A DNA stretch of 53,920 nucleotides, counting the filler, from Circinaria calcarea (taxonomy: Eukaryota), in the NCBI GenBank assembly GCA_051942165.1. It is 3 parts of 3 records of this genome, joined end to end, with 100 filler letters (N's around TTAATTAATTAA, not from the genome) between each part and the next. Parts side by side here need not be neighbours in the genome. Positions count along the whole stretch, not along the records: positions 1 to 17,918 come from JAVECS010000249.1; 2 more parts are not named here. The stretch is one strand, 5' to 3'. Both the position numbers and the translations under genes were made by a program. Of this stretch, positions 1 to 17,918 are shown piece after piece. The notes beneath the pieces are model-generated. The model searched no databases, had not been told where the DNA came from, and saw only the letters and a program-made list of their open reading frames with translations. The stretch's first letter is position 1. Each line of letters begins with the position of its first letter.

Positions 1-245
1 GGGGGGAATGGGGGGGTTTTCGTAAAGGTGGATAAAAAAAAAGGGGGAGATGGATGCCCCGGGTTATATCTCATCAATTGCTCGGTAAAAAACTCCTCGT
101 AGCGACAAACGGTTGAAATCAAAGCCATTACGAGTGTTTGAAGAAAAAGGTGCTTAGGTATTAAAGAAATCTCCATCGAATTTTGTCCTCTCCTACATTT
201 GCAAATCCGCCAACTCCATCCGGGCCCCTTTATCCATTGTACCCA

Positions 246-2651
246 TCACCCTTTAACTCCCTTCCCCCCCCCTCCCAAGAGAATTTCGTACTTGCCAGAC
301 CGATAAACACCGTCGGCAGCGACCACGTCGATTTGCTTCCCCATGAAAATCCATCGCGGCGTATCTCTGGGCACACGGATAATTGTACACTTTCTAATAT
401 TCACCATGTTGCCAAGTTTGTCCTTTATTATTTTCTCGGGCCGGTCAAGGTCTAGTCGGGGGAATATTTTAGATTCTGCGTAAGCTAGTGCGTAATCTTG
501 GTATGTGGCGAAAAGGATTATCATATCTTGGGACTGATCTGACACTAGTTCGTAGTTTCCAGTCTCCAGGATATCACTCAGGACATACTTGCCATTTTGC
601 TTCCAAGAGGAAAGACGCTTAGCATCGCTGGGTGCCCGAACAATCAGGATATTGCTTGTGTCGACAGCCGGGTTCCGCCGACTTACAGCAAGTAGCCGTT
701 CAGGGTTGGAGAACTCTTTGTTTATTTTGACAGCGTTTTGCTGATCTTGAATTGTGGCGAAGAAAATGCCGTGTGGTACTTCGGGTAGTAACTCCGTTAC
801 CTTTGGTGGTTTCCCAGATGGCTTGTCGACAATTTTCAATTGACCCGGCTTCACGACGTCAAGATGAATTATCTGTAGTATCTCGGACCCATCTGAATTT
901 GAGATCGCCTCTCGCCGACTTTTAGCAGACGCCCACACGAGGTTAATATCGTCAAGGTCTTCCTGTCCTTGATCTCGTGCATCGAGTACAGCTTGAGGTT
1001 TTCCAAATCGCTTGTCCTTAGCCGTGGCATTACTGTAATCACCAATTGTGAGAAAGAACGGAATCGCGTCCTCTACTCCGTCCTGTACGTCCACCGTCTT
1101 AGGTTCGCCTTCAACGGGGTCTGGCTCCGGTTGATATTGCCCAGTCCTCGCAATCTTATCTGCCACTATTGCGTCATCTCGGCTGGGCACAGCGGAGGAA
1201 CCCCGAGGCATTTCCGTAGCCCAGACCAGTTTGATATGGTCAGTGTGTTTCACACCCTTTCCCCTTGCAATAGCTAAAACTTTAGGATTGATGAAAGCCG
1301 AATGCCTACACTCTGCATTGTCTAAATCCGTGCGTGTCAGGAAAAGAGGTTTCCTTTCTATAGGTTCCTTTGGTGAAATAGTAATGGTGTCCTTTGGCAG
1401 TAAACCCGTCCCGCGATAAAAGTTTTCGGAATCTATTACACTTTTGGCCGTAATTGGACCCATTAATCGAGGGGCGTTCGGCCAGACATAAACAACATCA
1501 ACATCGTTTAAAGTACCAGGAATCTCACTTTGCTTAGCAATCACAGCTTCAGGATTGGCGTACGCCGTGTTTATTTCAGTTGCCCTAAAGTAGTCTCCGA
1601 GGGTGCGGAAAACAGGTACCTTCGTTTGGGGTTGATTTTCTGGGTATGTTGTCACTGGTACCTCTTCAAAGTGTCCAGACTCCAATACATTGTTTCCCGC
1701 AATATCATTCAGTTTATCGCCATAATGCCTATACCGCATGGTATTTTCAGGCACTCGAATAATTCTTATGCCGTTGAGGTACGGTGCCCCTGCTTTCCGT
1801 GTAGCGTCTATATCTTTAGGGCTTCTGTATGGGATCTCGTCTTTCTGAGCCAATATCGCATCTCTCTGCGTAGCGAAAAGGAGTACAGTTTCCTTTGATA
1901 ATGTTTGCCCGTCCTCTGTTTGGAGCGGTAAGGTTGGTGATGGTGGCGGCGGTGGACCAGGCAGCCAGTCCAAAACGTCCACAAAACTTTTGGACTCCAA
2001 CACATCACTCGCTGCAACCCGGTCATTCACTTGCCCGTCTTCGGCAGTATATCGTTTAGCATCTTCAAATACCTGGATGATTAGAATGTCATCCGTATCT
2101 GTCGAACCTTGAAATCTCGCCATAAGTACATTATTAGGCGTCCCATACAAACGGTTTCGAGAAGTAGCCAGGTTGAAATGTCGAATTGTGGCAAATAGAG
2201 CGATTTTCTCCACTCGCGGCTTGTCTTTTGGATATCCGGGCGTCAAATCTCGAAAGGTACCTGAATCTAGTACGCCCTCGGCCGCGACACTAGGGTGCCG
2301 GTGACCGCCTTCATCATATGACTTTGCAGGGTAGGAGACGCTGATAATCCTAATAGTACACGCAGTCGTATTGCCTCCCTTTTGCGCGCGTAGTACGTCT
2401 CCTGGCGTGATATGCTCCTTCTCAGGGTCTAGCGTCTTAGCTAATTCGTAATCACGCAACGTGGCGAAAAGAGTGATCCTCCCCACAACATCCTTTTCCC
2501 GCGGAGCGGTACTGGCTACACGAACAATGTCAATTCCGGCAACATTCTGCTGACGGTCCTCTGCGGCAAGTACAGCTGTCGGGCTGGTGTAAGTATCGTC
2601 TCGAACTAGAGCGAGAATTCGATCCTGATCTGTAGCGAAAAGAGGTATGAG
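246..2651 (-). repeat. Nine tandem, divergent protein repeats (~60-105 aa)
   Basis: The motif hhF[ALR]TxxD..A......P..V...I.hh.V...A.R...VAAxxVLxSGx[FY] recurs, with units starting near 2651, 2480, 2205, 1890, 1620, 1353, 1065, 773 and 524. Confidence 0.9.
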
Positions 2652-4245
2652 GTCCAGGTTTGGGTCTGGTTCTTCCGGTGCGTCTGGCATCCTTACATCG
2701 TCGGGTAGATCCTGGTCGTTCTGTGATCCAGACTGCTCTATCTGCCAACCATGGTATGCTTTCCTCTGTTGAAAGTGCATTGCTCCTAGTGCTGGAAACT
2801 CCATCATCTCTAAGAGGTCAAGGAAAGCCACCCCATCGTTCGGTCCCTCATAATAGTAGTAATCGCCTGTAGTTGGAGATCCTTTTTTAGCCATATAATC
2901 TGCTAATCGTAAGATTCCTATGCAAAATTGGACCCACCACTCAAGCGCTTTGTTGTCCAGAGTGCCTGCATATGGGAGGAACTCAAGCATATCCGAGGAT
3001 GGCTGTGATGGGGCGGAAGAAGGTGGGTCGTTCACGACGAAATTAGCCCAGTTGATGATCAATTCTTCGTGGTGGCTCATGAGTCTTGCGAGATCAGAGA
3101 TGGTTGTCTGAGCGAAAATAGCGTCAACAGATTGTTGGTAGGTGAAGTCACCCAGAACAGATTTATCAGGAGGAAGTTCCCATTGACCGTTTCCGTTACG
3201 TTTGAGCTGTTTTCTGTTGGGCCGATAACCATCTCCGTATATGACAGCAATGTAGGCAAGGTGCTTGAGAGTGTCAAGGTCGAAGCCTTCCGGTTTTTCT
3301 GCACCAACCTGAACCCGTAGGCGACAGCGTTCGGAAGTGACCGCAGCATGGAGATGGGCATCTCTACCTTTGATGGCATTTAGATAGGCATTGATCTCAG
3401 AGAACGAGTCAAGTTCCGAGTCTAACACTCTAGAGACGAGTACGATACCATGAGAGGTCCCTAATCGTGTTAGCTAGAGCTAGAAAAGTCAGAGCAAAAT
3501 CAGCTGACATTCATTAGCGTTTGGATAATCCTCATGCTTGATATCTACATCTCCTTTCGGATAAGGCCTGTTCCCGATATGGGCAGGGCCACCTTCAAAG
3601 TCCAGGGAGCGAGCCCCAGCAATGAGCTTTTCGCGATCGAGGAGACCTTGCAGGTCATGCTGGGCAAGACGCCCAAGTTCCTGGTCGCCATAAACATACC
3701 ACCTTTGGGAGGCCTCAGCGTCACGTCGAATTTTTTGGAGGTGAATATCGGCAGCCAGGCTTTGCTTTTCTGGCTGAACTGTGACTTGGTCGACCTGGTC
3801 AATATCCATTGCTTCAGCCTCTCGGGCCGGTGGGAAATAGTCATAGTTGAGGTTACGGGGATTGCCCCTCAAAACCTCCTGGGCGATGTACAATGGCTCC
3901 GTACCGGTTTCCCTTCACTCAAGCATTTCAGTTAGTCATATGAGTTCAATGCAAAAAGGAGCAGGCGCCAAGTGGTCCTCGGCTTCGAAACCAAGATTAC
4001 ATCGGCGCCAGCGTCTAACATAATCCTTCTTGCTTGGCCTGTGACGCTATAGGCGAAGAGAAAGTACGGCGCTTGTCCGTCAGAATCTTCCTCACGTACC
4101 TGTGTTCTCCAGTTTTCAGTCCTGTGTTTTCTGTTCCTTGTGTGCCTGGGTTCGGCTGCCTAACTTCGTCGAGGAGTGTATTATGGAACGCGAATATCAT
4201 GTCCAAGCTGAAGCTAAACTTCGGCTTGTAGTCTTCGTTGAGCAT
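246..4245 (-). CDS. Degenerate amidoligase-like (Amidoligase_2 / COOH-NH2 ligase fold) protein with nine C-terminal ~90-aa repeats; probably 3 exons
   Basis: ORFs 4015-4245, 3489-3893 and 246-3428 join into one gene. Intron 3461-3508 (GTCAGC...GCTAAC...TAG) restores EWTSHGIVLVSRVL. A first intron ends near 3912 (GACTAAC branch); its donor is uncertain. Family-like motifs occur in order: FSLDMIFAFH, EPLYIAQEVL, WYVYGDQEL, GIVLVSRVL, CRLRVQVG, LKHLA, INW, EFLPYAGTLD..WVQFC. The 3' end lies in low-complexity contig-end sequence. Confidence 0.75.
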
Positions 4246-5218
4246 CTTGAGAGTTGAGACACTGTAGGAACAGTAAGGACGCCTCCGAGTGATTGATTCT
4301 TACACAACTGTTTTGATGTGCTTATGCTACATGTAGTGCGAGAAGGCCAGCTTTTCTCGCATCCGCCTGGAGTAGTGGCAGATAAATGGTCCATTTCACG
4401 AGACAAAGAGAGAAGATGCTTGCTAACCAAAAACGACAGATGGACTGACGTGAGGATCATGAAGATGAATGCATCCTCGGGAACAGTGATAGGAGGGGAG
4501 GAATGGCCGGAAATGGATCTTTGGTGTTCCGCTTTATCCTTTCTGAACGAGTTTCAGGCGGTCTAACAGAAACTTGACTTTCGAGAGAAACGGGCAAATC
4601 CATAGCATCTCAGGACAGTACCCCGTATTCGCTGTATTGCTCTTCCGTTGGTCAGAACTGCGACTCGAGGATGCTGTTGTAGGACTCGAGGACTACATCA
4701 ATGGATTATCTGAACCTTGGGTTAGGCTAGCACGGGTAGTTACCTCGGTTAAATACTTAATCTCCAAAGGGTATTATCAGGCACGCTATTCTAAATATGT
4801 AACGAACGGACTTGCAAGATAAATTCCGAGAATGAGATATGAGCGATGGTCGTGCACATGTGAGAAAGTCTGCTCTGCTCCGTAGTCATGTCTATTCAAA
4901 GGTTTATATTCGTGATAGACGCGTAAAGGGAAACAATATATCAGCCTGAGCCGTCAAGGCAATAAATCCTTCGTAGCGTACACGCTTCTCGGACACCCGA
5001 CAGCAACGTATGGCAGACCGATGCTCTGCAGGGGAGCTTACAGTACAAGCATGGATCGGTTAGTGAATCCACGTAGACAAACTAAAGAGTAAATCCTATT
5101 AGGGGTACAAAAGCATATATATCCATGTAAACACTCCGCCAGCACCTGAGTAACCCACAGTATGTATAAGTAAGGTACTTATCAAGATATGGAAATAGCC
5201 TCGAAACAAACATCTATC

Positions 5219-8200
5219 CTATCCGTAAAGTTCCTCCTCATCATCCCCACCAGTATCTCCGAAGTCGCCATCGTCACCGTCACTCGAGGGCTCTCGCACC
5301 ACTGCTTTCCCCTTCCCCTTTCCCTTGGAGCTCCCATTCGTAAATACATCCCCGTCCCCATCATCGCCACTCTGATAGTCCCTCGCTATCGATTTTCCCT
5401 TTCCCTTAGCACTCACATTAGAGGATGCATACCTAGCTGGGGTACCGTAGTCGTTGCTGGTGACATACGCCTCGTCGTCATCATCGTCTTCCCCGTCCTC
5501 GTAGTCATGTTCGGAGCTCCAATTCGTAGCGATGGCCGTCCCCTTACCCTTGTTTATGGCTTTGGTATTGTATCGAGGTTTGGGTTTTGACCTAGAATAT
5601 ACCGCCTGTCCCGTACCGTTCACTTTGGGATATGGCAGATCTAACTGTGGAGGTAGGTTGCCGCCTGTACTGCTACTGTTCAAAGTTGGTCCTTCGAAGG
5701 CCTTACGGACTCGTTGGTAGTGTTCGAGTTCTTTGGCGCTATGCATGGTCAGTTTGATGAGTGATTGTGTCAAGTATCCTCGTTAGTCTTACCTGACACT
5801 GCCAATGAGTTCTTGTTGAGCAGCATAGAAGTCTTCTTCGGTGACCACAACGGCGATGTCCTCCTTGATAGCATAATGGTCAAAGAAATACGCAGCGGTG
5901 ACAGGTACAGGCATTGCCTTGATCTTTGCATCAACAGCAGATGCTTGTCGAGTGATAGCTTTGAGCATCGCATCCGAACACAGAGCATACAGATCGGCAC
6001 CGGTATAAGTAAAAGGGAGGGACTCGGCCACAAGGCGAAGCGATAGCTTTGGGTGAAGGGTGAATTTCCGTGTCAAAGCCTCCAAAATGGTAAGTTGCTT
6101 GTCATGAGTATCAGATACACCAAGGTAAAGCATCTTGTCAAATCTGCCAGGTCGAAGGAGCGCTTGATCAAGCAGATCAGGCCGATTTGTGGCACCGATA
6201 ACGAAGACGCCTCCTCCAGCTTCGTCACCATTGCTCATACCATCCAACTCTGCAAGAAGCTGACTGACGATACGATCCATAACGCCACCACTATCACCTT
6301 GGTTTCCTCGCTTTGGCGCGACGGAATCGAGTTCGTCGAAGAAGACAACGCAAGGTCTAGCATCTCTGGCTCGCTGGAACACACGACGTACATTAGCTTC
6401 AGACTCGCCTATGTACATGTTGAGTAGCTCCGGTCCTTTGACGGAGAAGAAGTTAAGAGAGAATTCCGTAGCAATCGCCTTTGCTAGTAGTGTTTTGCCA
6501 GTACCCGGTGGACCGTAGAATAAAATCCCGCTTCGTTTCTTCATGCCTTTGGCGAATAGTTCGGGCCGCTCTAGAGGCAGTTGTATTGTTTCCATCACGG
6601 CATCCTTGACATTCGTCAAACCTCCAACGTCGTCCCAGCTAACGTTGGGGATTTTCGGAGCGCCGATAGCATCTGCGAAATTCTTACGGGCGGCCTCGAC
6701 GGCAAGGTCAAAGTCAGCTTTCGTGACAGTACATGTCGCTCCCCCGGAAACCAACAGGTCCCTTAACAAAAGAGCACCCGAATGCTCAGCGTTTTTCGAG
6801 TTCTCGGATCCCAAAGCCTCTAGACGTTCCTGTCGCGCGATACGAGCTCGCTCGACAACATCGACCAAGTCACCAGCAACAAATGCTGCAGTCTTGACCG
6901 CTATAGCTGAAAGATCAACATCAAAAGCTAATCTTACCCCTTGAGCTTGGATGACCTCCTCTAAAATTCCTTCTCTCTCGCCTTCATCAGGAGCTGAAAC
7001 CTCTAATTCATGAGTGAACAGACTGCGAATGTCTTCGGGGACCTTGTCGATATCTGTTGTCGTCATAATTATAGCTTTGACATCCTCTACAACATCTTTG
7101 AGCACCGAACCCATTCGGTCGGCCGTCAGTGCCTCCAAGTGTCGGATTAGGGGCACGGTAAACTCTGGTCCACAACTCATTACCCGATCAACTTTGGCTT
7201 TGAGAGAAGCTTCTGTCTTGACATCTCCTCCCCCTGCACCACCTTCTGTAAGTATATCATATGCGTCGATAGGGAATACGTGAAGGCCAAGATCGGCGCA
7301 TGCACGTGAGGCTAAGTGGGCTTTACCAATACGTCGCTGAGTTGAGTGAAGCAGGATAACAATTGGCTTCAAATCCAAATGAAGTGTACCAGCGGCTGTA
7401 GCTGCTGCTAGAAGCTCACGTATTCGGCGTCGAAGAGGCGTGATGTGTAACCTATCAATACTTGCTGAATGATGCACGGCAGGGTTGGTAAGGATAGATA
7501 ACCTAGGGGGACGTCGAAGACCAAGGTAGTACTCCCAAGGATTTCCTATGGATGAGGGTACCTTAGACTGTTCCGTTCCGACTTGCACCATACGTGTGGT
7601 TTTCGGCTCGATAGACGCAACACCCCAAGTATCTGTTTCTTTCGGACGGTTTTCATCATCGGATGACCTCGTAACTTGTCCAACCTTAAACCAGGCTACC
7701 CCGGTCTTTCCCTCTTCTAATTGATTGCCCATGGTTGGACTTATCAAGAGCTCCTCAATCTCATCTGCTACCTCGGAACTACCTTCGGAAAGGATCTTAC
7801 TAACATCAATATCCATACTAATACTGACAAGGTCACCCTTTCGGAGTATGCGACGTCTTCGCTCAAAGTGTCGCTTAAGGCTTGCCAGTATGCCTGGCTG
7901 CATGGCCTTTTCAGTAGACAGCGGCGTTGCAAGCCTCAGCAACGTAATTTCTTTCGCTATCGGCGGACCTAGCACACTATCAATCTTCGATTTCACTGGC
8001 ATTTTGGCGTCTTGCGATTCTATCAAAAGTGGCATGAGCCTCACGGTCGACGGATTTCCAAGGTTTGCCAGTAAAATTGGTGAAAAGTAAGCCTCTGGAA
8101 GTGGTCTTCGGGTTGAGAGGGCTGTGCTAGATCTTCTCATCGTAGCTTTTCTCTGCGGGTTGTCAGGATTGTTCTTAGGTGTTAGGTCTGCCAAGCTATA

Positions 8201-9700
8201 TAGTTTAACGGCTCTGAATTCATCAGCTTCCACGCCGTTATCCTCGAATGGCTTAGCACCCCAGTAACCATCATTGCTCCTTCTTGAGTTCTGCGAGGCA
8301 TAGACTTTAACCCAATCGCCAGAAAAGCACCCTAACCTGGATAGCATTGTAACGTCTATGAAAACTCTTGCTTCTTCATCTTCATCACTTTTTGGTTGTG
8401 GAAATAAGACACTATCTGGCACTGATCTGAGCAGAGCCTTGGCCTGAAAGGGCTTGGCAGGAGCTTTTCTATCATTTCGTAGTGTCGTACTTGTGAAGTT
8501 CGAGTAGACAGAGCCAGGGGTGTTAGCTCCGCTGTTTCGGCCAAATACCATTCGAGGAGTAGCAGAGGTAACCGTTGTTGTCGCTCCTGGGCCTGATAAC
8601 GGCAGACTGGGAGGGCTCAATGTAATTAGGTTATCGGACAAGTCATCGGAGAGACTACTGTTCTCTGTGTCAGAACACTCGGAGTCTGAGCTGGAATACT
8701 TTTTGAGATTTTGCCTCTGCATTTTAGTCTGCGGGGGGTCGCCATTCTCCAAGGAAGAGGAAAACTGCTCAGCAGAGGTATCCTCGGCCTCTTCCGTAGG
8801 GATTCCGGGAGACGGTGATCCCTTTGGGAGCGACGTACCGTATTTCATAGTCTCCCCATTAGAGACTACGTCGATCAAGATTCTCGTCGTCGAACTCACG
8901 AACCCTTGATTGACAGGCTCACACATGGTGACTCTGACAGGGAGGAAAGCGACATGCGTGATTGGATGAGCAGGTAGGGGAAGTGGCAGTAGGTCACCTT
9001 GATGGATAATTCTCATAGAGGCTATGGATCTTCGAATAGCAGCTCTTAGACGATTTTGTTGATCCTGGCTTAATGACACCTCTTTCTCATAATCTGTCCC
9101 ACTACTCTCATTACTCGGCTTTCCGTTGACCTTCCCTTTACCTTTCCCAACTGACCCATGTGATTGGAAGCCACCGCCAAATCGCCTTTGAATCTCCTCA
9201 TGTTTTTGGAGAGCGTTTCCGTCAACTCTGACGACGATACGGTCCAAGGTTACAGGCTGTGTGTCCAAGACCAGGATTTTAAAGCCAAGTTTGGCTACGG
9301 CAAAGCCACCTCTTTGCTGGGAGTTCTTGATAAATCCCTGAATGGACAAAGATGAAGGCGGAAAACGTATCGAAGGAGCGGTTGAGGCCTTGGCCGGTCC
9401 ACTTGGAGTATCCTCGGACTTGACTGGTATTACCACCCAAGACGCATCTTCCAGCAAGTGCGGAGAATGGGGCCTCCAAGGAGTTATGGCAACGTGTTTG
9501 GCCTGTCCGTCGGTACAGCCATGCTGAAAGTGAGCAACGGAGCAACCAAAGAGCTCCGCAAAAAGTTCTGCCGATACAAGCCCAACGTCGCCCTCGCCAT
9601 GATTCTCTAGGATCAACTTAGCAGATAGGGGTGCTCTATCCGTCCTTCTCCGCCGCCGCCGTTTCTTACGGTGCTCCAAAGTCACGTTCGTGTCTTCCAT
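5219..9700 (-). CDS. PEX6: Peroxisomal biogenesis AAA ATPase Pex6 (~1475 aa, 2 exons)
   Basis: Degenerate D1 (HSTQRRIGKA) and intact D2 (GPPGTGKT, FFDELD, ATNRPDLLD..LRPGRFD); IGAPKIPNVSWDDVGG is typical of Pex6. Intron 5739-5792 (GTAAGA...CTGAC...TAG) joins ELIGSVS to AKELEHYQRVR, so ORF 5219-5773 is the last exon. Confidence 0.95.
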
Positions 9701-9800
9701 TAGTATTACCTTTTACTTGAAGATGGTTCAGCACAAGCTCATGAATTCGAATGGTCGTCAACTGCCTCCATACTTTATACCTCGATCCTGCTAATAAATG

Positions 9801-9806
9801 CCGAGG
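9801..9806. promoter_or_regulatory. CCGAGG/CCTCGG FarA/CTF1-type fatty-acid response core
   Basis: Exact CCGAGG ~100 bp upstream of the PEX6 ATG, in the divergent PEX6/lipase promoter. This core is the established Far-regulon motif for peroxin and lipid genes in filamentous fungi. A single hexamer could be chance. Confidence 0.4.
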
Positions 9807-10322
9807 TCAAATGAGATGTGATGCTAAGACAGGTTATTGCAACCAACACTTACCGCACAAGACTGCATCAATGTTGCTACTGAATGTCGAGGTATATGTA
9901 CACATTAAATTATAACTTATTAGGCAAACTGTTAATGCGCAAAGCAGATGGTATGTGTAGTCGTCCTCATTCATTCGACATTTGTTCCTGCATCCAAACA
10001 CACCTTACGGAGAAACGACAGGAGCGTTTGATCGTCTTATTCGAAATTGATTGGTCCGAGTTCCGGGCAATATGGTAAACAATTAATTTAAATTAGGCCT
10101 CCTTCACATGCAAATCTATAAATGGCGGGAAGATAGACATTTACACCACCGTCTACTAGATACTCGGTAGCGCGACAGGGCCTACCGGGATGTGAGCGCT
10201 ATGTCATTGCTCTTCGATGGTCATCTCTACTACGCCTGGCTTTTCTTTTGCTCGAGCAAAGACCATTTTGCAGCATTCGGGGAGAGCCGATTATTCAAAT
10301 GCTCCCTCCCTAGAGTAGTGAG

Positions 10323-12610
10323 ATGGCGACAAGAGCCACAGAGTCCAAGGCCGAGTCTGCCACTCAGTTCGCTCGACAAGCCGAACGGCTTTCTCTCCTA
10401 ACACAGCGCCGGCAGAATGAAGATTCATGTGCGACTGCCGCCGTTGAGGCTCAATTCGTGACTCCTAGAGACCCAGTTGTCCGGACCGCGAACGGAGGAC
10501 GCTTACCCGCCGTACCCTTGGACGAGGCTCGCAAACTCAATGAGCTGAAAGATCAGGTCGAACGAGACTCAGTAAACGGACCTACGGCCGCGGCTGATGG
10601 AGGTCAACAGAGGCAGCAGGACGGTGATGCGCTCGCGCAAAAGGCTCCGAGTGAGGAAACACTCAGTGGACCTGACCGTGAAGAGGCGTCCGAATCCTCG
10701 ACGAAACCAGAGCCGACCTTATATACCGCCTTGCTTCCTTCAACCACCCACCCTCTTTTCCCCTCTCTCCCATTGTACGGGCCACCAACTCTAGCGCGGG
10801 ATCTCCAATGTGCCTTCTTCCGAGTCTCGTCTTCCGTTTTATCACTATGCTTTCTAGGCGTCATTGTCCTTGGTTCGATATTTACAAGTATACCCCTGAT
10901 GTGCCGGCATGTTGGCTTGCGCCTTACATTCCGAAATCCCAACGCGCGCCGGCCTTTTCACGCAGAAGAGGAGAAACGGAAACACATCAGACAAGAACAA
11001 GCCAAGGCATGGAAGCACCGTCGACGGCGGAAAAGCAGTGTCGCTAGGCACATGGAAAATTGTGAGGAAGGCGCCGGCAGTGAATTCGAGCCTACGGAAG
11101 GTAGAAAAGACCCCCTAATTTGTGACGTGGCATACTACGCTCGTAGGGTGGGCTTGGACGTCGAAGAGTTCAAGGTTCTTACCGAGGATGGGTTTGTCCT
11201 TACATTATGGCACGTCTATCATCCGAAAGAATACACTCCTGCCTCGTGCGAACGTCGCGCTTACAGGCAGCCGGAAGTCTTCCCAGAGGGACATGTTGCA
11301 GCGGGTCAGACCCATGGCGCTACCGGCTCGCAGTATCCGAGTGGGAAAAAGAGGTATCCAGTCCTTCTCGTTCATGGTTTGCTACAGAGCGCTGGTGCAT
11401 ACTGCTGTAATGACGACGACAGCCTCGCGTTTTACCTGTGTAAAAGGTGTGACTTGTGCTCCCGATAAGGTTACGAACGCTGACCTTCGAAAGTGGCTAC
11501 GACGTTTGGCTAGGTAACAATAGATGTGGGTTTGAGCCTGAACATCAACTTCTCGAGTATCCTGATCCCCGAATGTGGGCATGGAATATCCGTCAGATGG
11601 GTGTGATGGATCTTCCCGCCCTCATTTCTCGTGTCCTTTCAGAAACGGGGTTTGAGAAGCTAGGCTTGGTTTGCCATTCGCAAGGTACAACAGAGGCATT
11701 CGTTGCACTGGCAAAGGAGCAAAGGCCAGACCTTGGCAGCAAGATTAGTGTCTTTTGCGCATTAGCACCTGCCGTCTACGCTGGCCCACTCATTGGAAAG
11801 ATGTACCTAAAATTCATGCGCATTATTTCAACGAGGATGTTTCGCGTGTTCTTCGGTATACACGCATTCATACCCTTTATGATGACTATGCATTCGCTGT
11901 TGCCGGGCAACTTTTATGGCGCTTTAGGGTATCGGGCCTTCTCCTTTCTTTTCAACTGGACCGACGAGCGTTGGGACCAAGGGCTCCGCGACAGGTTTTT
12001 TCAGTTCGCTCCTGTATACGTTAGTGCAGAAAGTATGCGGTGGTGGCTTGGCCGAGAATGCTTCGCTACGCAGAAGTGCATACTCGCGACAAGAGAGGAG
12101 GCAGAGCAAGAGGATGAGGAAGATGAAGACGGAGAGGAGAACTATTGTGTACATGAACGAATTCACCCCACTGAAAAGTCTGGTGACGATAGCAAGGGTA
12201 GCCCGACTCGGTCCATTGGCCGGACCGCTTGGTACGATGAGCAAATCCCTCCTATAGCGCTCTGGATCGGTGGATCGGATGAACTAGTCGATGGGAGGAG
12301 ACTGCTCCGCCGGTTCGAACGGGGTCGGGAACCCTTTGTGCGTATTGTCCATTCGAAAATCATAGAAGAATATGAGCATCTCGATTTCCTATGGGCGTTG
12401 AGTGCATCATACACTGTTCACGCGGAGATACGGGATATTTTGTTAGCCCCCCTCTTACCCGCACCCTGACACTAGAGTCTAGATGGAACACTGACTGAAC
12501 CATATAGGTGGAAAACCGCGTCCTCGGAATCTCGGGGCGTGTGCCGCATCCCCAAGGGATGCGAAGACGTCGGTATATGGAAGGATCCAAAGAGGTGGGA
12601 AGCAGCATGA
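10323..12610 (+). CDS. Alpha/beta-hydrolase lipase, sterol-esterase (Yeh1/Tgl1-like) family; 3 exons
   Basis: Motifs TEDGFVLTLWH, VHGLLQS, GYDVWLGNNR, nucleophile elbow CHSQG, GSDELVD and YEHLD; one N-proximal TM segment. Introns 11447-11493 and 12442-12507. The last exon (LWKTASSESRGVCRIPKGCE...) is missed by the ORF track. Confidence 0.88.
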
Positions 12611-13685
12611 TTATATCTAGGGATATATACATATGTACATATTAGGCAGGGAACCAGACTACCCCATTTAGGAGTTCAATTAAAACATAGAAGCTATTAA
12701 GCGTTCCATCGACAACTTGCATACCATTGACAAGTGATCCCTCCGCGGCGAAAAAAACCCCCACCAAGTAAAGAAAACATTTCTCAAAACCCACATGCTC
12801 TTTCCTATCCTCGACGCTCTGGTAATGTTCCCTACAATTAAGCTACCCCCTTGGCCGATTCCTTTACCAATCTTCCACCTTTCACTTCTCAAACTCCCCC
12901 CCTTTTCCTCTTAAACCCTCCCTCTCTCTTCCCTTTTGAAAAAACCACTCGAAACTCCAAAACATCATTTCGAATCCAGCATTTTCCTATCCTTTAATTT
13001 CAAAGTCGAGGGTGGTGAGTGCGCGTTCCCAATGGCGGAGCAGATGGGTTAAATGGCGTTTAGGAGAGCATTAGAGGGGTTTGTACAGGGAGTGCTACGG
13101 CGTTCGAGTTGAAAGGTTGGGAGAGGGGAGGGGACTGACAGAATAGAGTAGGAGAATAAGAACAGTGGGAAGGGGGACAAGGAGATAGGATGGGTAGGTA
13201 TACCGGAATCTTGAGCCAACGGGAATGAGTAGAATCGTGTGAGTGGTTATTCGGTCTAGTGTGGACTGATGTTGGTAAGGTAGAGAGGACTGAGGGATTC
13301 AGATGGGTTTAGCTGCTTGGGCTAGGGTAGGTACTCTCGAAGTCTAGGTATTGTGTCGTCGTAGCTATTTCTTTCGGTTTGACGACTTTAACATGGATGT
13401 CCAGATTATGATATGGCTCGCTACCAGAGTGTAGTCCAGAACCCATTGGGACCAATTGATGGCACTAAGATATTCTACACAGGAAAGAAATCACACACGT
13501 GCTCTCTGTCGGACCCTACTTTTCGAACACAGGATTCCGAGAAAATGCTAGGAAATTTCTGTCATCCATTTACCTACTGCGGATTCTTTTCCCTTCCATC
13601 TTTCGCTTCAGGGACTCCAAGCTCCATCTGCAAAGTCTCATCCCGAGAGCTGTACCGCTAGAGGAGGCTCACGTTCTTCAACAGC

Positions 13686-14629
13686 ATGACTACGGAAGCG
13701 AAGGTGCCAACGATCACAAAATCGAGCATGAAACCTGCGATGGACTCTTCTGAGTTAAGTGAGTCCCTAGTTCAGATCCTGTCATGACAGTTATAGTGTC
13801 TGAGAAATCCTAGTGGGCTGACTTTTCTGCCAACAGTCACCCTTGACGAATTCTGCTCTCGCTTGAATCCTAACCGGGTTACTTTTCCTGGATGTCCGTT
13901 GTCTCTTCCATGCGCCACAGGTTCGGTTACCGAGAGAATTGTTAGGGAGATGTACAACACGCATTTGGGCGAAGTACTCGAGGTGCTGGACCAGCATAAA
14001 ATCCGTAAACGCCGCGTCGACCTCGTTTCCATCTGGAAGTGGGACGGACCTAAGAAGCCAACTCTTCAGATATACGCCGACGATGAAGGTATTACCTCTT
14101 GGCCGACGGTAGCAGAGCAGCTCTACAATCTATTTCCCGAAGGCATGCCGAGGGCTTTCAACTGGAGCTGCGAGGTCCCAAACGTATCGACATATATGCC
14201 TTTCCAGAAGCGGTTGCACCGCAGGACTGTGAATATTTCAGTTCCAAGGCTCCACAGCTGGACAACATATTGCACCAATCCTTGGGAGATGATCTTGAAG
14301 CGTTTGGATTGTACATGTGCGGGGATAAAGTATCCGAGGCCACGTCTGGACCGCTGAAAACAACCATTTTGATCTACGTCAAGCCCAGGGTACGACATGA
14401 TTGGGCCGGCATCATGGCTTGTGCCCGAACCATAATCTCGACTGATCGGGTTGCAATCTGGTTCCAAGAGGCCCAGATACTCGATCTGGTCCAGCGAACT
14501 GCTTCCGAAGAAAACAAGAGTTTGGAGGAGCACATTAGGCGAATGAGAGCAGAGCGTAGGCTCAGTTTCAGGTTCCGCAAGATTGTCAAGAGTATTTGGC
14601 GAGGGCCGCGCATCGAAAAGGGTATTTGA
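13686..14629 (+). pseudogene. Frameshifted hypothetical gene with an internally duplicated module (pseudogene or sequencing error)
   Basis: ATG 13686, intron 13759-13836, then ORF 13863 frame. The protein-like sequence switches to the ORF 14099 frame near 14133-14140 (tatttcccga). Confidence 0.55.
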
Positions 14630-15221
14630 TTTGAAATATGCCGATTTGCTTTGCCAGAGGAAAAACATTAGGGGGGTTTGTGTATCAGAATTACTCCCAA
14701 GAAAAACATGCGAGGACTTTACGCACCAGACCCTATCTCTGTTTGTGGAAACTCTGTGACCGACTCATACGATTAGCTTGCCATAAGCCAGAAGAGTTTT
14801 CTCACTCTTTATGCCTACAGCAGCAATTACACATATACTATGCACTTATAACAACGGTTGAACTCCTATAGTCGATGGCGACCTTGTAAGTGCATGTAGA
14901 GTACTCCAACGAGGTCGAGTTATAAAAGCTCGTCAGGACTAATATGCATTGGAAAGAGATATGTCATGCCCCTGCATTCTGGCAATGAAAGTTCATGGGT
15001 AAGAAGTAATCAAATATAAACTCCTAGATGCTCTGATATATACGAAAGGTAGAAATCAGATTGATAAGCCTTCTCCTCAGCTTCATTCAGAATCGCATGA
15101 GTGCAATTGTTCCGACTTGCCAGTAGTAATCCCAAGTTGCCACTAAGCAAGCGGGGTAAATTTGACGCGCACACGCAGTTAGCGCCGGGCGGGAATCTTC
15201 GGCAGCCGGAGAAACCCTCTT

Positions 15222-15259
15222 TTATCTCCTTATCTATCGGACGTCCCCGTAAGTGATAG
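15222..15259. promoter_or_regulatory. Cluster of four HGATAR (AreA/NIT2-type GATA) sites
   Basis: TTATCT 15222, TTATCT 15230, CTATCG 15234 and TGATAG 15254 lie within 40 bp, ~290 bp upstream of an amino-acid permease. Confidence 0.5.
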
Positions 15260-15534
15260 GACCACCAGCATAAAAGCACCGAGAGAGTGGTGGGTATGAG
15301 AGAAGAACCCGTTTTGCCCCTCCTTGCCAACCTCGTTCGCGGAGCTGGCTCTTATTGGACCTGCCATTGAGAGATAGTGTGGTCCGCCTTCTTCGTCTGC
15401 ATCAATCTAGCCTGGAACATTACCCTATATCTATAATGACGCCCCCTCGCAACAGTGCCGTGCCTTCAAGTCCCTATTCCCGCGAATAGCAGGGTGGATT
15501 CTTCGTCAAAAATACCTACAAAAACCCTCCCATC

Positions 15535-17377
15535 ATGGCTGAGTCGCGCGGATATAGTATCTCTTCGGCGCGGAGGAAGTCAGTCGCAGAACATGCCGTA
15601 ACTTCTGTACTCAGCAGCGGAGAAGTACCGATCTATGAGCGCGACTTGACCGCGGACGACGAGGTACTGGCAGCCCTGGGATACAAGCCCGAATTCAAAC
15701 GGGAATTTAGCCTGTGGACAACTTTTTGCGTCAGCTTCGCCGTTCTGGGCTTACTTCCTTCGTTCGCCGCGACTTTATACTATGGCATGGGGTACGCAGG
15801 AACGCCGGGAATGGTCTGGGGTTGGCTCATCGCGATGGTCTTTATTCAGTGCGTGGCGATGAGTATGGCCGAGCTATGCTCGTCTATGCCAACTAGTGGA
15901 GGGCTCTACTACGCGTCTGCTGTGCTGGCTCCACCTGGTTATGGCCCATTTGCTGCTTGGGTAACTGGCTGGTCAAATTGGCTGGCTCAAGTTACTGCGG
16001 CTCCATCCGTGGATTATGCTCGTAAGCATACTATGAGGTACAAATGGAAATATAACACTTACATCTTCCAGTCGCTGCCATGGTTTTAGCTGCCGCCTCA
16101 ATCAACAGTCCAGCCTATTTCCCGGAGGCGTGGCATGTGTTCCTTCTGACGTCGCTACTCATGCTCATTCATGCATGTATTAGCAGCATGCCAACAAGAT
16201 GGATCGCAAACTTCAATTCTGTTGGATCTTCTTTCAACATGATTGCCCTCTTCATTGTAATCATTATGATACCCGCCGGTACAAATAGAGAATCACAAGG
16301 GCTGCCACGCTTCACGCCATCCTCACAGGTGTGGGGCAACCTCTACAATGGAACAGATTTTCCTGAAGGACTTGCTGTCTTGATGTCGTTCGTTGGAGTT
16401 TTGTGGTCGATGAGTGGGTACGACAGTGCCTTTCACCTGAGCGAAGAATGTGCCAATGCCAACATCGCCTCGCCGAGAGCAATTGTCTTGACTTCGGCGA
16501 CTGGTGGACTTTTTGGTTGGTTTCTTCAGCTCGTCGTCGCCTATACGGTTATTGATATCCCCAGCGTCATCACTTCCGACCTTGGGCAGCCTTGGGCAGC
16601 GTATCTACTTCAGGTGATGCCCCAGAAAACTGCTCTTGCCATCCTCGCTCTTACGATCATGGGCGCATTTTCTATGGGCCAGGGCTGCATGGTGGCTGCC
16701 TCTCGGGTCACCTTTGCTTACGCTCGTGATGGTTGCTTTCCCTGCTCCTGGTGGATTAAGCGTGTCGATCGGCATACACAGACTCCTGTCAATGCAGTCT
16801 GGTTCAATACGGCCATTGGCATTTGCATGACTCTATTGATATTTGGTGGTACTGTTGCAATTGGCGCCATCTTTTCCATCGGGGCTGTTGCTGCTTTCGT
16901 TGCATTCGCCATCCCTATCTTCATTCGAGTTTTCTTCGTGGGAGATAGGTTCAGACCCGGACCATGGAATCTGGGCAGGTTCAGTACCCCTATTGGAGTC
17001 ATTGCCTGTGCGTTTGTGCTTGTCATGGTGCCCGTACTGTGCTTGCCCAGTCTTACAGGCGCAAATCTTGAGTACGTCCTCATTCTGATTTTCTTCAGAT
17101 ACAAATTTACTAACCAAGACTCGCCAGCCCATCGACGATGAATTGGACATGTCTCGTATACGGGGCGCCCATGCTATGTGCCGTGATGTGGTGGGTTGTA
17201 AGCGCGCGCCACTGGTTCAAGGGGCCGAAAGTCAACATCGAGCATCAGATACTCGGAAGGGAGGAAAATATCATGTATGGCAAGGATGGGAGTGACAAGA
17301 ATGGAGGGTCAAGCGCCAATAGTCTCACTAAGGACATGCGTGATCTATCCGATCGAAAAGCTACAGATTTGGCTTGA
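15535..17377 (+). CDS. APC-superfamily amino acid/polyamine permease (Uga4/Tpo5-like); 3 exons
   Basis: Motifs LGYKPEFKREFS, MAELCSSMPTSGGLY, GYDSAFHLSEE, ASRVTFAYARDG and MNWTCLV...WFKGP; ~12 TM segments. Introns 16022-16071 and 17072-17127. Confidence 0.92.
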
Positions 17378-17582
17378 TCCAAGGGCTCTCATTGTACAGC
17401 TGGAACTCTGCATAGCCATAGGACCGTCCATCGTACCCTTTCTATTTCATATACATGGATGTATTTATTGTTCCAAATTGAAAAGCATCAAGGGTATCCT
17501 GTATTAGGGTCTGACCTGAGATCCAGTTTGACAACGGCTTCTTTCCCTGTGCCCGAAAATCCTAACCTTAACTTTAAGATGT

Positions 17583-17777
17583 TTTGCTCAGGTAGCTCCC
17601 ATGACCAAGCCCTCTGAGCACCCTGAGCCAAACCCAATACTCAGATGGTTCTGATGCCAAGCTCTCTGAGCATTCTGAGCATCGGCGGTGTAGTTTCCCC
17701 CCGCCTCCGGTGTCACATGTCAGTAGTATGGCTGTAACGCCATAACATTGCTCAGTATGCTCATGGAGGTGAGCAAA
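17583..17777. promoter_or_regulatory. Cluster of TGCTCA/TGAGCA motifs (Mac1/CuRE-like) followed by a TATA-like element
   Basis: Seven exact TGCTCA/TGAGCA hexamers in 195 bp, bounded by inverted TTTGCTCA (17583) and TGAGCAAA (17770); TATATA at ~17792. Confidence 0.55.
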
Positions 17778-17918
17778 GTGAAGCAACGTATTATATAGGC
17801 AGGCAGGCTATTCCCGCTCTTTAAAATAGCATGCTTATGTCTAGACACATACGGAATAAACAATAGACCAATATTACTGTTCCGGTAATCGTGCACCACG
17901 GGAGTGAACTCTATCCCT

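Follow-up and report, generated by a model that had tools for sequence, protein, structure and literature searches.

A predicted Amidoligase_2 pseudoenzyme with nine tandem repeats in the fungus Circinaria calcarea

The window analysed here is a stretch of 53,920 nucleotides, filler included, from the Circinaria calcarea assembly GCA_051942165.1, and its positions 1-17918 represent one contig (JAVECS010000249.1) of that 31.5-Mb assembly. A gene on the minus strand of this contig (4245-246) consists of three exons and encodes a predicted product of 1,254 stop-free codons, which we call the pseudo-ligase. Residues 1 to ~425 (2736..4245, minus strand) make up a domain derived from Amidoligase_2 with a substituted active site, and residues 449-1254 consist of nine tandem repeats. 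In the reading that we favor, with a probability of about 0.56, a catalytically dead but folded module and nine predicted-folded repeats together constitute a non-catalytic binding or scaffold protein; the module is likely dead because six of its eight canonical metal- and ATP-site residues are lost. An enzyme fold combined with missing catalytic motifs, in an open predicted frame, would place the predicted protein among pseudoenzymes as that class is defined in excerpts of PMC5106787 and PMC10211241. A sequence-only reading had located the feature at 2750..4245; the domain does lie there (2736-4245), but exon 3 continues to 246 with the nine repeats, which that reading overlooked.

The ancestry of the N-terminal domain is apparent from its relatives. 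A phmmer search of 1.84 billion representatives yields 72 proteins at E<=0.001 (best 1e-22), all matching within this domain, and 68 of the 72 match PF12224 (E<=0.01). All 30 of 30 ESM Atlas matches belong to the Amidoligase_2 family (score 0.94). Against a profile of five paralogues from the same genome the score is 32.6 bits (best shuffle 6.2; 842 of 2,000 shuffles reported), the spliced domain reaches ~190 bits with a profile built from 37 relatives, and Amidoligase_2 motif blocks occur in family order across the whole domain. By these comparisons, the domain is a descendant of Amidoligase_2, with a similarity far beyond chance. The profile check that had been suggested for it succeeds through the relatives but not directly: exon pieces scanned singly against PF12224 give no match at E up to 10 (Pfam cut-off 22 bits), and a PF12224 family search of the genome finds seven other loci and misses this one. 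A PDB sequence search with the N-terminal domain also gives no significant match.

A tree of 72 rows contains the pseudo-ligase, 66 of the 72 relatives and five of the seven paralogues, leaving out six short relatives and the broken loci L008 and L010. In this tree a 99/92 branch parts the pseudo-ligase from the five paralogues; its position among the relatives is unresolved, and its branch is long (1.92 vs a median of 0.68). When an intact paralogue of the same subfamily was sought with intact relatives, the best genome match in both searches was the pseudo-ligase locus itself, in a fragmented assembly of which only the top candidates were scored. L008 (~1510, G000:C2460) is an Amidoligase_2 paralogue with intact motifs and one frame change, due to recent damage or an assembly error.

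According to excerpts of PMC2588565, the catalytic motifs of the ligases are Ex[EH] on strand 1, an acid on strand 2, another on strand 3, [HD]x[NH] on strand 4 and Ex[RK] on strand 6; arginine fingers lie on strand 5 and the preceding loop, and the chemistry is ATP-dependent amide-bond formation. One Mg is held by E134/E189/E196 and the other by E132/H245/E333 (4LNN numbering; Table 3 of PMC6478659, a source represented here by excerpts). Mapped onto Amidoligase_2 by motif order rather than residue-level superposition, the eight canonical positions are S13, D15, D125, V190, R232, Q234, E343 and L345. Six are substituted, one of them conservatively, and D125 and E343 are kept. Strand 1 has S13-L-D15 (4209-4207 and 4203-4201 for the two outer residues) in place of its two Glu, each of which occurs in 45 of 46 covering relatives. 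The strand 2 acid is present as D125 (Asp in 50 of 53 relatives), while strand 3 has V190 (3443) instead of Glu (61 of 65). The strand 4 motif is replaced by R232 (3317)-V-Q234 (3311), where the relatives have His (67 of 69 at the first position, 68 of 69 at the second), and on strand 6, E343 (2984) is kept and L345 (2978) stands for Arg, both family residues being found in 70 of 70.

Further losses are G230R (3323), E259G, T341M, Q346P and H347Y, and the motif-1 Gly is now S11. The family's conserved loop Arg is Lys in both alignments, near 267-270, at an exact position that depends on the alignment. N320 is retained, and the Ser of DxS has become E127. All eight positions are covered by 45 relatives: 41 of these are intact throughout, two have a single loss, one has three losses and one has four. 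Coverage is incomplete in the remaining 27, of which 25 show no loss. The six motif strings quoted in the sequence-only reading are all present on the minus strand, in the order given, and align to family motifs. Its first motif, FSLDMI(F), was off by two in register, since a gapless 25-residue match equates FGxExE with FSFSLD, but both Glu are indeed substituted, as are the E of ExxS, both His and the Arg of EFR (V190, R232, Q234 and L345). The description of the catalytic residues as systematically erased fits the six of eight that are substituted and overstates the case for D125, E343 and N320, which are kept, and for D15, which is conservative.

The predicted fold of the N-terminal domain, a saddle-shaped sheet with backing helices, matches structures of the glutamine-synthetase and glutamate-cysteine-ligase type. 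The repeats are also predicted to be folded. There are nine, of ~90 residues each with the first truncated, all on the minus strand: repeat 1 at 2666-2496, repeat 2 at 2495-2223, repeat 3 at 2222-1920, repeat 4 at 1904-1638, repeat 5 at 1637-1371, repeat 6 at 1370-1083, repeat 7 at 1082-789, repeat 8 at 788-540 and repeat 9 at 539-249. Pairwise identity is 16-40%, with F-x-T, A and P invariant. When each repeat is scored with a profile built from the other eight, the values are 30.8-66.9 bits, and the best of 500 shuffles for each is at most 10.7. Identity at codon positions 1, 2 and 3 is 0.42, 0.49 and 0.34, a sequence signature of selection at the protein level. Structure prediction of repeat 4 from the alignment of all nine gives a predicted local distance difference test score (pLDDT) of 86 and a predicted template modelling score (pTM) of 0.78, with a unit of the order beta-alpha-alpha-beta-beta-beta-alpha.

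The losses in the N-terminal domain are concentrated in polar residues. Of 29 columns conserved at >=90%, the model has counterparts for 27, the other two being left out; in the 27 tested, 3 of 14 polar residues are kept and 11 of 13 non-polar ones (Fisher p=0.0018). The split persists at looser cut-offs (p=0.013 at 85%, p=0.025 at 80%) and is absent from columns conserved at 60-85% (polar 11/19, non-polar 34/52). In a neutral base-change simulation of the 27 codons, halted at the observed loss, three or fewer polar residues are kept in 44 of 20,000 runs (P=0.002). Such decay corresponds to ~0.31 changes per base and to ~26 stops in the whole frame, which stays open in none of 300 runs. The control is L010 (G000:C693, 1250-2250), a pseudogene of the same Pfam family in which GLHVHVG, EIISR and EFRQH are intact despite several frameshifts and stops; as judged from its motifs, this true pseudogene shows the opposite pattern to the pseudo-ligase. 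The proposal that the hydrophobic scaffold and reading frame were kept while chemistry was selectively lost agrees with the 11 conserved non-polar residues, the 1,254 codons open in the model, the Fisher test, the simulation and the match of the predicted fold to the ligase fold. A selective loss of chemistry while the fold was retained, rather than general decay, is thus supported at the level of sequence.

In the gene model, exon 1 (4100..4245) starts with the ATG at 4245, placed by gapless alignment of the first 25 residues with relatives that share that Met, and contains core strand 1 (FSFSLD for FGxExE). Predicted intron 1 (3913..4099, 187 nt) opens with the donor GTACGT and closes with the acceptor AAG, with ACTAAC as its branch site. 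Exon 2 (3509..3912) carries R..TEPLYIAQEVL, a motif of the subfamily, and WYVYGDQE, which is core strand 2, with W120 and D125 kept and Ser changed to E127. Predicted intron 2 (3461..3508, 48 nt) has a GTCAGC donor, a GCTAAC branch and a TAG acceptor, and its splicing yields WTSHGIVLVSR; it is well fixed because its removal restores a junction of the relatives' WDSHGIELVSR type. Exon 3 (246..3460) holds the remainder of the ligase-like domain, a short acidic linker and the nine repeats, with the stop at 248-246, and its frame has 1,075 codons open between stops. All these features are on the minus strand. The model of intron 1 is the top one of 53 open splice models (191.9 bits), with alternatives within 1-3 bits, and its predicted placement is less sure than that of intron 2; the active-site positions are the same across the 25 best models. 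Codon-usage scoring is uninformative for this genome. Two candidates within intron 1 were rejected. The intron does not qualify as former coding sequence, as 399 of 1,000 shuffles score equally high, and the NLGFEAE inside it is not the genuine FGxExE, the gapless match coming from exon 1.

If the active site is read against the glutamine-synthetase fold, the Mg site formed by E134/E189/E196 in 4LNN would be reduced to D15/D125/V190, and that formed by E132/H245/E333 to S13/R232/E343. The phosphate-contacting His would correspond to Q234 and the strand-6 Arg to L345, and with both replaced the gamma-acyl-phosphate step should therefore fail. With damage to both metal sites as well as to the phosphate contacts, canonical ATP-dependent ligation appears very unlikely. 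R232 may pair with E343 and so take the place of the missing metal, which would explain why E343 survives. The protein is probably soluble and intracellular; its predicted sequence has no hydrophobic segment above 1.22.

Several points weigh against a dead but folded binding module. The fold model covers exon 3 only, without strands 1-2, and was made with an alignment of intact relatives, so that it leans to their fold; a Foldseek search with the N-terminal domain model gives no significant match. Four acidic residues are left near the old site (D15, D125, the new E127 and E343), which bears on the possibility of compensating acidic residues raised at the outset, in a model that lacks strands 1-2. 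The conserved Y-x-G-W segment of the relatives is absent. Columns conserved at 30-60% show a mild split of their own (polar 11/44, non-polar 25/61), and the relatives were collected with the pseudo-ligase as query, which biases them towards residues that it shares. Selection is inferred from one sequence, because no orthologue was found. The literature gave no activity for any fungal member of the family, so that "dead" is judged against predicted chemistry.

The same polar/non-polar split is predicted if the domain is a structural passenger, in which case selection would act on the repeat array and the N-terminal hydrophobic core would be kept only since misfolding harms the whole protein, with no binding role of its own. 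Most substitutions lie one base from the family residue, as under relaxed constraint, a conserved segment has also been lost from the domain, and this genome shows turnover of the family, with L010 broken and L008 frameshifted. Set against this, moderately conserved polar residues of the subfamily are kept at the ordinary rate (11/19, including R49, E54 and H250), and a useless domain of 425 residues could have been deleted over so long a branch; we regard the passenger explanation as rather doubtful. It is less probable still that the site has changed its chemistry or senses a ligand, with D15, D125, E127, E343 and R232 forming a remodelled site, with one metal or none, for binding a glutamyl-type ligand or for another reaction. 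Dop is a precedent for hydrolysis by this fold and is among the structural matches of the predicted N-terminal domain. The retention of D125, E343 and N320 and the changes of the DxS Ser to Glu and of His to Arg would suit such a site, and excerpts of PMC6478659 describe PA5508 (4HPP) with a single Mg. The single-Mg site of PA5508 is, however, made of three Glu, and the pseudo-ligase has Val at the third of these positions. Both His have gone along with the strand-6 Arg, Thr, Gln and the glycine of the CG pair, and the retention of 3 of 14 polar residues calls for no special explanation.

It is also conceivable, though very improbable, that the gene is unexpressed or mis-modelled. Intron 1 would then not be spliced as proposed, translation would run into a stop at 4018-4016, and the locus would be a recent pseudogene of an older pseudoenzyme. 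Intron 1 is long (187 nt) and uses the less common AAG acceptor after a skipped GAG, several splice models score alike, and relatives have coding sequence at this point. On the other hand, its donor and branch site are canonical, all stops fall within the two predicted introns so that 3,765 exon bases are open, and the intron segment has no trace of former coding sequence.

Searches for orthologues were negative, and each is weak evidence. Word-based protein searches found none with the exon-3 domain (targets of 414-2000 aa) or with the whole of exon 3 (588-1873 aa), none of 74 pattern matches in metagenome contigs was confirmed as an orthologue, and a protein search with the repeat profile found none. 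In the phmmer search only the N-terminal domain was matched, the best stretches ending at residue 281 of 1,070. On present sequences, the pseudo-ligase with repeats is lineage-specific, known from one genome. Literature searches on amidoligases and pseudoenzymes found no inactive Amidoligase_2, though inactive members may be mentioned in Iyer et al. 2009 (Mol Biosyst), a treatment of amidoligases of this fold, or in its supplements.

Milder losses occur elsewhere in the family. The relatives P0032, P0058, P0024, P0057, P0052 and P0056, on different branches, have one to four canonical ligands substituted, and four have lost the strand-3 Glu. Of the eight positions, P0032 has lost four and P0058 (Xylographa) three, and P0024 and P0057 likewise lack the strand-3 Glu. 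In the tree, P0032 groups with the intact P0015 and P0018 (100/99), and P0058 and P0024 belong to another 100/99 group; because of this placement, the partial losses would be, by our reading of the tree, separate events unrelated to the pseudo-ligase. On a speculative reading, independent loss of the strand-3 Glu and neighbouring ligands in several lichen-fungal members would suggest a second, non-catalytic binding function in the subfamily. A broader and speculative picture, which we hold only tentatively, is that an Amidoligase_2 pseudoenzyme joined to a new ~90-residue domain in nine copies, maybe of undescribed fold, is the extreme of a trend of repeated ligand loss, in a subfamily whose second binding function outlives its chemistry.

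No substrate is known for fungal Amidoligase_2 proteins, which are annotated as enzymes. A copy with the fold but without the chemistry marks catalytic versus other residues and offers a naturally occurring negative control when members of the family are first assayed, and the repeat unit is a small, confidently modelled domain without a family match. Pseudoenzymes are common and this fold already has one in lengsin, which makes the general lesson unsurprising, and a single known copy limits its reach. Excerpts of PMC3158057 list amidoligase among domains enriched in Sclerotinia and Botrytis, and excerpts of PMC8982410 report that an amidoligase gene is often lost in asexual Epichloe.

Directly upstream of the pseudo-ligase gene lies PEX6, a peroxisomal AAA ATPase gene (5219-9712, minus strand), and further along are a lipase-like gene (10314-12466) and an amino-acid permease gene (16056-17138), both on the plus strand. 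The pseudo-ligase gene ends 245 bases from the contig end. Positions 1-300 are homopolymer-rich, and the gene's final codons, about nine of them, are possibly unreliable (low complexity); no further repeat copy was seen in the other reading frames of this segment.

The closest known counterparts are fungal Amidoligase_2 (PF12224) proteins of a subfamily in which most named members belong to lichen-forming fungi, among them Lasallia pustulata SLM37669.1, Xylographa MCJ1287956.1 and MCJ1397409.1, Schaereria MCJ1484228.1 and Trapelia MCJ1246253.1. Twenty relatives were looked up; wherever their cluster has a named member, the source is a lichen-forming fungus, the one exception being a Stromatinia protein. 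The fungal relatives share the start, motif order and subfamily signatures of the pseudo-ligase (31-34% identity for the nearest, over profile columns) and frequently have a long, variable C-terminal extension. Unlike the pseudo-ligase, they retain FGxExE, DxS/T, ExxS, CGxHxH and EFRQH, and none of the 72 matches its repeats. Long unrelated C-terminal extensions or inserts are present in many of them (P0006, P0016, P0056, P0058, P0059 and others), and domain accretion seems, from their sequences, to be common in this subfamily.

More distant counterparts are the carboxylate-amine ligases of glutamine-synthetase fold, namely YbdK/GCS2 (1tt4), GshA (1v4g), yeast GCL (3ig5), PafA (4bjr), Dop (9cku) and the glutamine synthetases. 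Their motifs, as given in excerpts of PMC2588565 (strand-1 ExE, strand-3 acid, strand-4 HxH/N, strand-6 ExR), are broken in the pseudo-ligase. FluG resembles it as a fungal glutamine-synthetase-fold domain fused to a second region (excerpts of PMC6478659), but retains and requires the metal and ATP ligands that are gone here. A further parallel is lengsin (LGSN, 2j9i), a vertebrate lens pseudo-glutamine synthetase derived from class I glutamine synthetase, which lacks a repeat array and differs in origin, the pseudo-ligase having arisen independently from Amidoligase_2 in a fungus. By analogy, the pseudo-ligase may work like lengsin. A pseudoenzyme of this fold is already known in lengsin.
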